From positions 496,001-560,000 of the forward strand of contig AP026129.1 of assembly GCA_030295235.1 (NCBI GenBank): 64,000 bases of DNA. Direction: 5' to 3'. Source of the DNA: Fistulifera solaris (taxonomy: Eukaryota). Position 1 is the first letter of the stretch, and each line of letters opens with the position of its first letter. The translations under genes were made by a program, and so were the position numbers. Shown piece by piece: positions 30,842-51,476 of the stretch. Below the pieces are notes generated by a model. That model was not told the origin of the DNA, made no database searches, and saw nothing but the letters and a program-made list of their open reading frames with translations.

Positions 30842-31370
30842 TGCAATAGTCGGAAGTCTTGCAATAGTCGGAAGTCTTGCAATAGTCGGAAGTCTTGCAA
30901 TAGTCGGAAGTCTTGCAATAGTCGGAAGTCTTGCAATAGTCGGAAGTCTTGCAATAGTCAGAAGTCTTGCAATAGTCGGAAGTCTTGCAATAGTCGGAAG
31001 TCTTGCAATAGTCGGAAGTCTTGCAATAGTCAGAAGTCTTGCAATAGTCGGAAGTCTTGCAATAGTCGGAAGTCATGCAATAGTCGGAAGTCATGCAATA
31101 GTCGGAAGTCTTGCAATAGTCGGAAGTCATGCAATAGTCGGAAGTCATGCAATAGTTAGAAGTCTTGCAATAGTCGGAAGTCTTGCAATAGTCGGAAGTC
31201 ATGCAATAGTCGGAAGTCTTGCAATAGTCGGAAGTCTTGCAATAGTCGGAAGTCTTGCAATAGTCGGAAGTCATGCAATAGTTGGAAGTCTTGCAATAGT
31301 CGGAAGTCATGCAATAGTTGGAAGTCTTGCAATAGTCGGAAGTCTTGCAATAGTCGGAAGTCTTGCAATA
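30842..31370. repeat. 18-bp minisatellite (GCAATAGTCGGAAGTCTT), about 29 copies
   Basis: Directly visible head-to-tail array with no spacers. Variants occur only at the CpG and at TCTT>TCAT. Confidence 0.98.
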
Positions 31371-47237: not shown

Positions 47238-47526
47238 GTAAAAGTAGAGAATTAAAATCGCTTAATTTAGTTGCTTGATGCTTTTTTAGACAGGGAACCC
47301 CCGACTCGCAATTTGCTATGTTGTGGCCCATATTCTTGCAATGTGGCGCACTGAATGGTTTTCCGACTCAAAGGCGATGAGCTAGGCGTTTAAAGCCGAG
47401 TCCGATAAACATGCGCTGACTAAATGTGACAATGACATTTGAGCTAATATGAAGATATTTAAATATTACATGCAAGTTTAAGTTGGCTACCTGAGGATTT
47501 TGCCGTTCGACTTTACTTCGTCTTGA

Positions 47527-48959
47527 TTACGAAAACTCGCGATCCGGAAATACGCGTGGCGCGATCAAAGTCCAAATGTACAATCCCATCGCGAACCACT
47601 GACTGATACCAATCATTGCCATGTTGACCCGGCCGATCATGGGATTTGCAGCACTGGCTTCACTTTCAAGACTTCCCCATCCTGTGAGCGTCATGGCAAC
47701 CCAGCACGAAATGAGCGCCATGACCACATTAAGTTTCCATGTATCCTTAGGAAATGACTCATTTTCAATGTGTTGCTCAGTGACGAGTCCAGATGTGACC
47801 TGAGAATCTGGCTCGAGAAACGGGACGTCTAAGTTTGTGCCCTGGACCTGGGAAGGATTACTGCTTGCTACAGGCCGCGCCGACTGAACACCATCGACAT
47901 TAAGACGTTCTTCGGCCGTCCATGAAAATCCAGTCCACGCTAAACTTAACGCCGTCAGTGTCAAGCCGATTGCGATACCCCAAGAATCGTTGGTTCCCAA
48001 CGTGGGATTGCATTCCGCGTGTGGATTCTTCGACACCATGCTGTACGCCAAATACGTCGAATACATGCTCATGACACTACTTGTCAATAAACTACCCTCC
48101 GGACCCGACAACTGAATCCCCGTCATGGCTGCAATGCCCACGAGCGTCAAGGAAATGATCCAGTTGTTTCCGGCGCAATCCCCAAAATGCGTGTAGAGCA
48201 AAATAATCCCCGCCAAACTCATTCCGTACAAGCCAATACAAGATGCTACAATCGCATGCAGCCAGACATTACCACTTCCGTATTCGAGACGATCGGCTTT
48301 ATCCGCTCGATCGACCCAATCCTCATTCCAGTTGTACGCCACATCAATAAGAATGATTTGTTGCAATACACAAAAGATCATAGCCCCGAGCCGCGCGAAG
48401 CGCAAAAAGCGACACTGAAGAGCGGTGCACTGGGTACAATCACCGTGGCGAGTAATAAGAGAAAGAAGATACCAAATTTGGACGGCCACACTTCTCGATT
48501 GAGCGTCGGACGACTTTTGGTAGCGACCGCCGCCACACCAAAAAACAAGGTCGACAACGCCATCGGACGATAGACTCCGGCGTGTCCGGCGCATTGCACT
48601 AAATTGTATCCTTGACAAGAATCATACCAAGCGTGATACGTCAATTTTCCCATTCCAGGAAGCCAACGATACATTTTCCAGAGAATGCCACTTTGATTCA
48701 CGATTGCCGGACCGACCGTGTATTGAAACCACAAAGCCATTGCAATGGCTAAACTCAATAAAAGTACGGATCGTTTGCGTCCCGTCGTTCCTTCTCCGGT
48801 TCCGCCCAAACAGGACTGCACGACACTCCCCACCGCGTTGCAGCAGCAATACGTGAGTCCCATTGTCACGGTCGAACTGATCAAGGCACCCTTTTGTAAC
48901 ATAAGTGCGTGTGAGGCAATTAGTTTTGATGCAGACATTGCAGCGCCAAGACTTACCAT
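47527..48959 (-). CDS. SERINC: serine incorporator (SERINC/TMS1)
   Basis: An intron right after the ATG (48891-48956) gives MGALISS...CCC. Also ARLGAMIFCVLQQIILIDVAYNWNEDW, SLLTSS, YLAYS, AMTLTGW, YIWTLIAPRVFPDREFS. Confidence 0.95.
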
Positions 48960-49099
48960 TTGGTTGTGTCAATTAGTTGTGATTTGAACAAAAGAGAATT
49001 ATAGAGAGTTATGATTGACTAATTTTGATGTTTATGTTCTTCTTGTCAACGAGAGATGCCGCAAAAAAGAAGCTGATGACACTCAGACGTAAAAACACC

Positions 49100-49245
49100 C
49101 TCACCCAGATTTTCTGGGAACTTGAAATTCACTCTCCCAGATTTTCTGGGTACGTGAAAACACCACTGAATTTCTATGCAAATGAAGTTATCACATACAC
49201 AGATTTTCTGCCTACTTGAAGAGACCACATAACAGATTTTGAAGA
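49100..49245. repeat. degenerate ~32-bp tandem repeat with core CAGATTTTCTG
   Basis: Core at 49106, 49138 and 49200, partial at 49233, degenerate at 49166. Confidence 0.75.
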
Positions 49246-49397
49246 GCACGCGACAACTGACAACACCATGCTACTGCCCTAGCTTGTTTCTCACTCACAT
49301 GCGCGTCGTTATTCAGTCTTTAAGTCAAATTAATCGTTACAAAGTCATACACGTTTTTACATCCCTCTACTTTTACAAGTAAATTTTCTGTGCACGT

Positions 49398-49848
49398 TCT
49401 TGCTGACGTTTTTTTACGCTAAACAAGCACAGCGTGCCGCATTTTGAGCAGTCGTCAAACGGAATTTCCGACAGACGTTTTTTGCCTAAGCAGAAAATCT
49501 GTGCCGCAATTTTTATTTAGACTAGGCTACCAGCGTAAACGGAAATTCTAGCTGATGTTTTCTGAATGAACAGAAAATCTGTGCCGCCATTTTTGTGTAG
49601 ACCAAGAATCCATAGTCGTAAAACGGAAATTCTGGCTGACGTTTTTTTGCATAAAACAGACACTCTGTGCCGCATTCTGAAATGACGGAAATTCTGGCTG
49701 ACGTTTTTTTGCATCAACAGAAAATCTGTCTCGCATTTTCTGTATTCATTCGTCGAACGGAAATTCTGGCTGACATTTTTTCAATCCGAACAGAAAATCT
49801 GTGACGTACTTCCAGTACAAGAAGTAGTCTTCAGACGGAAATTCTGGC
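49398..49848. repeat. interspaced direct-repeat array: ~52-bp unit ACGGAAATTCTGGCTGACGTTTTTT-N-AACAGAAAATCTGTGCCGCATT with unique spacers
   Basis: Five full units at ~49459, 49539, 49623, 49685 and 49757, plus partial units at ~49398 and 49835. Periods are 80, 84, 62, 72 and 78 bp. Confidence 0.92.
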
Positions 49849-50051
49849 GATTGCCAGCCTCGCCGATTTTGCCGTGGACAACGAGCATGCTTGCGAAGCG
49901 GACGGTCGAGGGTATGGGCTGTAATGTAGAGGTACTTGTTCATGGTAGCTTGTTTCATTCATCGCGCTCCCCGAACGCACCATAATTTTTGATTGCCCTC
50001 GACTCCTCACTATCCATCTTCATCCCTTTGTCTTTCATTTGAATCATTCTC

Positions 50052-51476
50052 ATGGACAACAATAATAAAAAGAAGAAGGATACGGATACCAGTGCGGTGG
50101 AAGCTGGTCGTGCAATCGACCGGAGCTTTTTCGAATCCTTGACGGATGCACAACTGGCCCAGCATGTTTTCCCTTTGTCTCTTGACAACAAGTCAAGGTT
50201 GGCAATTGTGTATCATTTTATCGATGAATTCTATCGCCGCTTTGGTCTCCGCGTGTCACATAACCCGACGGAGAAAAAATGGTACCCCGGCTCTGCCCCT
50301 GGCGATGACACGGCCAAGAAACCGTTTGTCCATATATTCCGCGAAGATAATCATTGGCACTGTGATCTCTATTGCAGTGATTGCCGCGATTGCCGGGATA
50401 CGTGTGCCGGGAAACTAGGAAAGGATTACACCAAGTTCCTTGGGGAGGTCACTGTGGTAGCTACAATTACGTTCAAGACCCTTCCAAGCTCCAAGAAAAA
50501 AGACACCTTGTACAGGGGCTTCGTGTCTCATCTATACTATCATCACGTCCACAATGACGGCGGCGACTTGAAGCAGTTAATGAGTAGTGGGTGGTGCATT
50601 TTGTCGACACCTCATGACTTGGCTGGTGTTTACGATAAGGGAATGGCTCATTGTAAGGAGTACCTCCATCCCGACAAAGGTAACAAGGTTCAGCAACACG
50701 AAAACTTGGTGCCCATCAATTTGGGATCTGGTGAAAAATCCATGGACAACAGGTACCATTTGATGATGTCAAAAAGGGAAAAAGCTGGGATGAAAGGCTT
50801 GTGAATGCGTGTTGCAATGATGAGCCTGACGGTGCTAGCCTTGTGGAGCTCACGAAACACCGACAGGTGATTGTCTCTCTCTTCTATGCTATTTGCTGCA
50901 GGCTTGGATTGGACAATATCGCATCTCCTTTCATATACCCCATGCGTGGCTTTCTTATCCAGAATAGCGAGAAGAACCGCCGCGTGAATCCGCAATGCCG
51001 TCTTTTCTGCAACGAGGAGTCATTGCTAGCCGGCGGTTTTGCTCATTCACCTTCTGTCCCTGCTCAACCCGTCCATTGCGATCACCCTGATTGTGAACAA
51101 TTTCTTGGAACCGTTGTGACGGAATATCCACCAACTGAAACCGATCTTGGGCAACTTCTTGATGCTGGGATGACCTTCATTCATCCCTTGTCGGAACAAG
51201 GAAGACTGGTCCACGTTCTCAAGTCCCCGCTTCATATTCAGCCGCACCAAACACTTGTCTTTTTTGGGAAATGTTGCTCACGCAGGGGCTACTCATCATT
51301 TGAAGAAAGATGACTCACGCAAGCCTACCTGGCCGGCTCTTCATGTCCATATCGATGTCAAGAACAATGAAAGAGGAAGTCCTCTTTTGATCGACAAGGA
51401 CGACACACATCTGATTTTTAAGAAAGTGAATCCTTCTGAACCTAAATACACACCAAGCAAGAGGAAAAAGATTTGA
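50052..51476 (+). CDS. Cys-rich domain fused to a 2OG-Fe(II) dioxygenase (PhyH-like double-stranded beta-helix); probably one ~470-aa gene
   Basis: QPVHCD (HxD at 51074-51082), MTFIHPL, LVF(F/L)GNVAHAGA and ALHVHID after removing one base at ~51265. N-terminal part has HCDLYCSDCRDCRDTC. Adding one T at ~50800 joins the two ORFs (GFVNACC). Confidence 0.65.

Follow-up and report, generated by a model that had tools for sequence, protein, structure and literature searches.

Does a row of regularly spaced repeats between two genes of the diatom Fistulifera solaris represent a CRISPR-like array in a eukaryote, or a tandem repeat that has taken on the appearance of one? The question arose for the window analyzed here, that is the whole 64-kb stretch (64,000 nucleotides) of contig AP026129.1. 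A sequence-only reading of it had described conserved repeats of ~52 bp separated by mostly non-homologous spacers, and had suggested that the repeat is under selection as a protein-binding site or an RNA-processing signal. We found a head-to-tail tandem array at positions 49397-49848 (452 bp). Each unit of the array has three parts, namely half-unit A (ACGGAAATTCTGG-CTGACG-T run), half-unit B (ACAGAAAATCTGTGCCGCATTTT), and a decayed third segment, which corresponds to the spacers of the sequence-only reading. The individual units (U0 to U6) and the element that adjoins them on the left are as follows:

49383..49397, + strand: lone family-like unit (ATTTTCTGTGCACGT) adjoining U0 (repeat search, family D2)
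49397..49458, + strand: U0, a partial unit and the most diverged one, with TGACGT and the T-run present, the B half degenerate, and GAGCAGTCGTCA as its spacer (repeat search, family D2; full-unit alignment)
49459..49538, + strand: U1, 80 bp, with the perfect palindrome CGGAATTTCCG in its A half (anchor search, full-unit alignment)
49539..49622, + strand: U2, 84 bp, the longest unit (TRF, anchor search, full-unit alignment)
49623..49684, + strand: U3, 62 bp, with ~22 bp of the spacer deleted and the B palindrome altered at its centre (ACAGACACTCTGT) (full-unit alignment)
49685..49756, + strand: U4, 72 bp (full-unit alignment)
49757..49834, + strand: U5, 78 bp (full-unit alignment, TGACGT count)
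49835..49848, + strand: U6, a partial unit of 14 nt (ACGGAAATTCTGGC) at the right end of the array (repeat search, D3)

The array thus comprises five full and two partial units, as had been claimed, and the repeats are borne out by the unit starts, the alignment, TRF, and the counts of 19-mers. Anchored on ACGGAA, the full units start at 49459, 49539, 49623, 49685, and 49757 and measure 80, 84, 62, 72, and 78 bp, respectively; U2 is the one nearest to the ancestral length. TRF reported a period of 80 with 2.7 copies, 75% matches, 6% indels, and a score of 228. When 19-mers were searched with up to 3 mismatches, the A-half 19-mer gave 4 matches (0.01 expected) and the B-half 19-mer gave 5 (0.00 expected), all of them within the array; these numbers are far above expectation and show that the array is not due to chance. 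The pairwise identity of the five full units is 61-80%, and 31 of the 60 ungapped columns are invariant. With units that are no more similar than this, neutral decay is well advanced. A coding reading of the array was rejected: the ORFs crossing it are just 40-70 aa long, and two of the unit lengths are not multiples of 3.

The array lies within a 1092-bp (1.09-kb) gap between two divergently oriented genes:

47527..48959, - strand: Serinc (serine incorporator) gene, its start facing the array (Pfam, E 1e-51)
50052..50804, + strand: lineage-specific ORF of 250 aa, its start codon 204 bp right of the array (ORF list, homologue alignment)

It is at least 438 bp away from the Serinc ATG at 48959. 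Relative to the ATG at 50052 it spans -204 to -655 and is thus non-coding DNA in promoter range. The sole detected homologue of the 250-aa ORF is P0001 (393 aa, 38% identity, E 8e-43), and the alignment with this protein starts at residue 3, which supports the ATG at 50052. A Pfam scan of 48 ORFs found ordinary eukaryotic families; the set comprised 4 ORFs next to the array, 16 from anywhere in the window with 250 aa or more, and 28 from the 38-62 kb interval with 110 aa or more. Additionally, of the at least 120 matches to a COQ5-type ORF in the window, those listed with an organism name (62-72% identity) come from Amphora, Cylindrotheca, Nitzschia, Pseudo-nitzschia, and Thalassiosira, which places the organism among the diatoms. 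The region is of the diatom nuclear type and carries ordinary housekeeping genes. In a sequencing run guessed to be RNA (X2), contigs cover 47555-48819, corresponding to Serinc, and none cover the intergenic region or the + strand gene; this distribution has no bearing on whether the array is expressed. As a probe for an upstream exon, 14 letters from one X2 loose end were searched for in the window and gave 0 matches.

The reading as a repeat-spacer structure depends on the intervals between the repeats. With the limits set by the sequence-only reading, the spacers are 12, 24, 26, 8, 17, and 23 nt long, and its observation that their lengths are unequal (8 to 26 nt) holds. The four spacers it had quoted occur once each, at 49446, 49514, 49595, and 49740. 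We aligned the spacers alone and compared the result with shuffled spacers that were re-aligned in the same way. Globally aligned within these limits, the six spacers gave 94 sum-of-pairs matches compared to 73.2 +/- 8.4 for shuffled ones (reached by 1 of 300 shuffles); with limits that include the T-run, 134 matches were obtained compared to 94.8 +/- 10.4 (0 of 300). A cruder test based on summed local pairwise spacer scores gave 139 compared to 127.6 +/- 7.0 and was not significant, with 28 of 500 shuffles reaching the observed value. In the full-unit alignment, the spacers have a common 5' piece (TTTTTATTTAGAC, TTTTTGTGTAGAC, TTTTCTGTAT) and a common 3' piece located right before the next ACGG (CAGTCGTCAA, CAGCGTAA, TAGTCGTAAA, CATTCGTCGA, TAGTCTTCAG). 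The differences between spacers are mostly internal indels, i.e. the amount of the middle that is missing varies. The homology of the spacers is real but weak, positional, and concentrated at both spacer ends. As the spacers align with each other, it is the whole unit of ~80-84 bp that was duplicated, and its last third has since decayed by substitutions and deletions. The claim of mostly non-homologous spacers is consequently not upheld by the global alignments. The contrast that had been drawn with ordinary minisatellites, in which the whole unit is duplicated, fails as well, since the variable part is also homologous between copies. The descent of all spacers, by decay, from a single ancestral unit is in fact the first half of the outcome that the sequence-only reading had itself named as speaking against its proposal. 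Overall, a segment of ~80-84 bp between divergent diatom genes was duplicated in tandem long ago and has been decaying since; the array is a minisatellite with higher-order structure.

A CRISPR-like or RNA-processing array, in which the repeats are transcribed and cut into small RNAs with informative spacers, is extremely improbable in view of these results. The superficial repeat-spacer layout and the short palindromes within the repeats are in its favour, and the whole array folds better than shuffles on the - strand (z -3.30; -1.86 on the + strand), as any palindrome array would and as is expected when short palindromes recur. Single units, however, fold no better than shuffles (z -0.33, -1.31, +1.19, and -1.38), and Rfam gave 0 matches at E <=1 over 48500-50500, so that the suggested RNA-processing signal finds no support. 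Against this reading, the spacers are homologous to each other and vary from 8 to 26 nt in length, and the four of at least 17 nt have no match elsewhere in the 64-kb window at up to 20% mismatches. The 12-nt spacer has just 2-mismatch matches elsewhere in the window, which is expected for so short a word. A search of the spacers against viruses had also been proposed; in it, the two longest spacers had 0 exact matches in viral contigs, and the unit of the repeat family had 0 matches there. The absence of cas genes, which had already been pointed out, holds for the 48 ORFs scanned with Pfam, none of which has a Cas domain, and the host is eukaryotic.

Elements termed 'CRISPR-like' have been obtained with repeat finders before, as the classes described in PMC5294841 and as 'hCRISPRs' of the human genome in PMC8993844. 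The array resembles CRISPR arrays and such elements in its regularly spaced direct repeats, its less similar intervals, and a repeat length in the CRISPR range: CRISPR repeats are near-identical and ~23-55 nt long, and the core of 51-53 nt fits this length, whereas the unit identity of 61-80% does not fit near-identity. In contrast to CRISPR arrays, its spacers are mutually related and unequal, the identity of its repeats is low, cas genes, a leader, and protospacers are lacking, and the organism is eukaryotic. None of the defining features of CRISPR arrays that could be tested holds here, and the CRISPR-like architecture proposed earlier is not borne out, since the spacers are homologous, vary by indels, and, for those searched, match nothing else in the window or in viral contigs. 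The array is one of those false positives in which repeat-spacer structure is mimicked by a degenerate tandem repeat. In a eukaryote, a CRISPR analogue would have been remarkable; the evidence is against it, and the locus instead illustrates how repeat-spacer architecture can be imitated by a tandem repeat that has degenerated.

Closer inspection of the units revealed an internal duplication. A fuzzy anchor search matched ACAGAAAATC besides ACGGAAATTC, showing that the unit consists of two related halves of ~30 bp. The sequences compared, ACGGAAATTCTGGCTGACGTTTT for A and ACAGAAAATCTGTCTCGCATTTT for B (as in U4), are identical at 17 of 23 positions, which 53 of 2000 shuffles reach. Across all A x B pairs, the score was 365 compared to 254 +/- 9.8 (reached by 0 of 300 shuffles), with the reservation that non-independent copies are being compared. 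A short quasi-palindromic repeat with the core GAAAWTCTG underlies both halves. All 11 exact copies of this core in the 64-kb window are located at 49106-49846, within one intergenic region of 1.09 kb, compared to 2.53 copies expected in the window (0 of 100 shuffles reach 11), and the core was not found in any other promoter of the window. Such a restriction to one promoter is less expected of a regulatory word in wide use than of a clumped satellite or mobile repeat. Similarly, all 7 exact copies of CAGAAAATCTG in the window fall at 49106-49846, three of them within a set of repeats at 49097-49228 (see below). The best-kept parts of the unit are the palindromes CGGAAWTTCYG and ACAGAAAATCTGT. 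To our knowledge, no factor has been described for them; presumably, they resemble heat-shock elements.

The same palindromic theme extends to the left of the array, where we identified a further repeat set:

49086..49245, + strand: repeats of short period (32/62 bp) that combine the palindrome CCCAGATTTTCTGGG with TACGTGAAAACAC (repeat search, D4; depth; folding)

In this set, which runs from 49097 to 49228 at ~150 bp left of the array, the unit CCCAGATTTTCTGGG-TACGTGAAAACAC recurs at spacings of 32 and 62 bp. The stretch at 49021-49371 has its core at 49104-49167, and the repeat is absent elsewhere in the 64-kb window. The best local match between the left repeats and the array covers 16 of 17 positions and scores 29 compared to 17.5 +/- 2.3 for shuffled sequence (0 of 500 shuffles reach it). 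A local alignment in the same orientation scored 20, which is within the shuffle range, and we therefore claim no orientation relationship beyond the common palindrome. The two left palindromes form a strong fold with one another (z -5.4 and -4.7).

For the copy number outside the window, contigs of public sequencing runs were aligned to 47500-51000; run X1 accounts for 88% of the sampled words. Over 49021-49371, which falls into three bins, the summed contig depth in X1 reached 260, 972, and 324, with the value of 972 at 49138-49254. The array had a depth of 15.9 (~16 per haplotype), and most bins of the flanks had 31-54. At 49130 and 49166-49167, dozens of loose ends run on into variants of the left unit of ~32-37 bp, and the left repeat is also present in run X5 and, at low depth, in run X6. 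The left repeat is thus a high-copy, tandemly arranged family in this organism. This 32-37-bp palindromic repeat family, high-copy in a diatom, is undescribed, and in the literature on tandem repeats in diatom promoters it was not found among the matches listed. An 11-mer match in a diatom paper was rejected as a match to the family, the position being plasmid vector sequence. The palindrome arms of family copies seemed to co-vary in the loose-end strings, but this was discounted, as these strings are consensuses with an agreement of 0.5-0.75.

The array itself behaves differently from the left repeats in the reads. It is spanned by one X1 contig of 828 nt (49312-50139) with 0 differences and is single-copy at a likeness of at least 85%. 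Its flanks occur in X1 in two sequence versions that are 6-12% apart (15 of 251 and 62 of 512 letters), coding sequence included. Two versions this far apart in one run suggest very divergent haplotypes or homeologous copies, and just one of the two aligns over the array. A metagenome contig of 3363 nt from X5 differs at 121 letters over 995 bases of the + strand gene. According to the contig alignment, this contig matches 49613-49739 at 85% or more, returns to 49613-49648, and then jumps to 50006, while non-repeat intergenic DNA could not be aligned. This pattern suggests a diverged copy of the locus in which the units are still recognisable but arranged differently. A metagenome scan for the periodic A-motif pattern yielded 31 loci, of which 0 are related (blastn, E <=1e-3); all are tandem repeats without relation to the array, in which the 12-mer occurs by coincidence. 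Prokaryotic genome contigs gave 2 single matches, both due to chance and located in bacterial MAGs.

We then asked how the differences between units are distributed. A blind change-point scan of the five full units placed the boundary between conserved and variable sequence after ungapped column 52, which agrees with the ~52-bp repeat proposed earlier and with a core of 51-53 nt. The 52 core columns contain 28 minority bases compared to 15 in the 8 spacer columns, a contrast reached by 3 of 5000 column permutations. The density of substitutions thus differs ~3.5-fold between core and spacer, although the units are old. The earlier statement that the repeat is better conserved than the spacers is therefore supported by the change-point, though the longest invariant run inside the core is 6 and unexceptional (1955 of 5000 permutations reach it). 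Constraint on the core would account for this heterogeneity; so could, in place of selection, an indel hot spot that obscures the alignment.

A known diatom regulatory motif is found among the repeated words of the array. TGACGT occurs 43 times in the window, and 4 of these copies lie in the 452-bp array, at 49404, 49637, 49699, and 49802, all on one strand. The motif is intact in the A half of just 3 of 6 units; U5 has lost it there (TGACAT) and has gained a copy in its B half (49802). According to PMC11142338, TGACGT/C is the target of PtbZIP11 within ~300 bp of diatom start codons, and PMC4937327 describes it as the 'aureo box' of aureochromes, often occurring in several copies per promoter. 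The TGACGT/C clusters of diatom promoters resemble the array, which has several boxes a few hundred bp upstream of an ATG (PMC11142338, PMC4937327). The boxes of the array are also fairly regularly spaced. Unlike in such clusters, other parts of the unit are better conserved than TGACGT, and all boxes are on one strand.

On the basis of the sequence, we favour, with a probability of about 0.55, a promoter minisatellite whose core is kept as a homotypic cluster of candidate sites for dimeric DNA-binding proteins. Slippage or unequal exchange acting on the short palindromic family may have seeded and amplified the local array. Its 52-bp core would have been kept more faithfully because it offers repeated sites for dimeric DNA-binding proteins, with a bZIP factor at TGACGT and another, putative factor at the two palindromes as candidate binders. 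As an upstream element of the promoter that both genes share, the array would most likely act on the + strand gene, at a distance of 204 bp. Neither the acquisition of outside sequence nor a guide RNA would be involved.

Two other explanations have to be weighed against such a promoter element. The array might be a functionless, decaying minisatellite, i.e. the neutral local expansion of a satellite-like palindromic repeat, with a core that reflects the placement of indels only. We consider this possible but less likely. The units are consistent with it, being 61-80% identical without a long invariant block and having their indels clustered in one part; so are the high copy number and tandem arrangement of the family elsewhere and the absence of the motif from any other promoter in the window. 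The X5 contig has another unit arrangement, with joints 49739->49613 and 49648->50006, as is expected of unstable minisatellites. On the other hand, the X5 units are alignable at 85% or more whereas the neighbouring unique intergenic DNA is not, which speaks against purely neutral decay, as does the ~3.5-fold contrast in substitutions between core and spacer (3/5000) despite the age of the units. The array is also at a distance at which promoters are usually found in a compact genome, and it contains a documented diatom bZIP box.

The palindromes could alternatively be what remains of a mobile element (for example a MITE, a foldback element, or a DNA transposon with its subterminal repeats), in which case the motifs would be transposase-binding sites and the two clusters the two ends of the element. 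This origin appears unlikely. It would account for the high copy number of the left part in the reads, for palindromic cores that flank a non-repeat stretch of ~140 bp with the central triplet of the core flipped, and for the strong folding of the two left palindromes with each other. However, there are no terminal inverted repeats beyond the common motif of 11-17 nt: the ends of the block showed no inverted repeats, and those that were found are limited to the common motif (arms of 11-27 nt, 70-94%). Transposase, reverse-transcriptase, and integrase domains were not detected in the 48 ORFs with Pfam. Moreover, the array is single-copy at 85% or more and the high copy number is limited to 49021-49371, and the loose ends of the family copies enter further tandem units instead of a common element body.

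Minisatellites in promoters or upstream regions that act as repeated enhancers are known. The 60/81-bp repeats in the intergenic spacer of Xenopus rDNA are repeated enhancer elements whose length variants differ by an internal indel. Like these upstream enhancer minisatellites, the array consists of head-to-tail units of tens of bp upstream of a gene, combines a conserved core with an indel-variable segment that gives rise to several unit lengths (62-84 bp here), and may differ in copy arrangement between related genomes. Its units are far more diverged (61-80%), it is known from sequence alone, and, unlike the Xenopus-type repeats, it is built from a genome-wide short palindromic repeat. There is also a likeness to the higher-order repeats of satellites, in that a monomer of ~30 bp diverged into A and B, which were then co-amplified. 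In contrast to satellites, the array has ~6 units at a single locus in a gene-dense region and shows no sign of recent homogenisation.

The high-copy palindromic family, which may seed arrays in promoter DNA, is the most useful by-product of this analysis. In case the cores bind factors, the locus would provide a compact natural test bed for copy-number-dependent promoter strength and might be of some use in diatom promoter engineering. A more far-reaching idea, which we regard as improbable, is that the GAAAWTCTG family is a genome-wide, self-spreading carrier of transcription factor sites in the diatom lineage concerned, whose copies insert or expand within promoters and are locally amplified, as in this array, into tunable multi-site enhancers. 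If this were true, the number and spacing of units would differ between the two very divergent haplotypes or homeologues and contribute to allele-specific expression.

Some additional observations concern the genes beside the array and the other repeats of the window. The 250-aa protein is cysteine-rich and contains the motif CSDCRDCRD; it matched no Pfam family and gave no usable ESM Atlas match. The Serinc gene is present as two overlapping ORFs in different frames (48378-48594). Contigs with an extra A after 48403 account for the entire X2 and X5 depth at this site and for half of that in X1; by frame arithmetic, this A would give a single Serinc ORF. The copy in the window may thus be a frameshifted allele or contain a one-base error. 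Only three tandem arrays with a TRF score of at least 60 were detected in the 64-kb window. At 30842-31370, no sign of coding was found for a very regular 18-bp tandem repeat (TGCAATAGTCGGAAGTCT; 29.4 copies, 95% matches), which is open in several frames on both strands, as is expected from its period.
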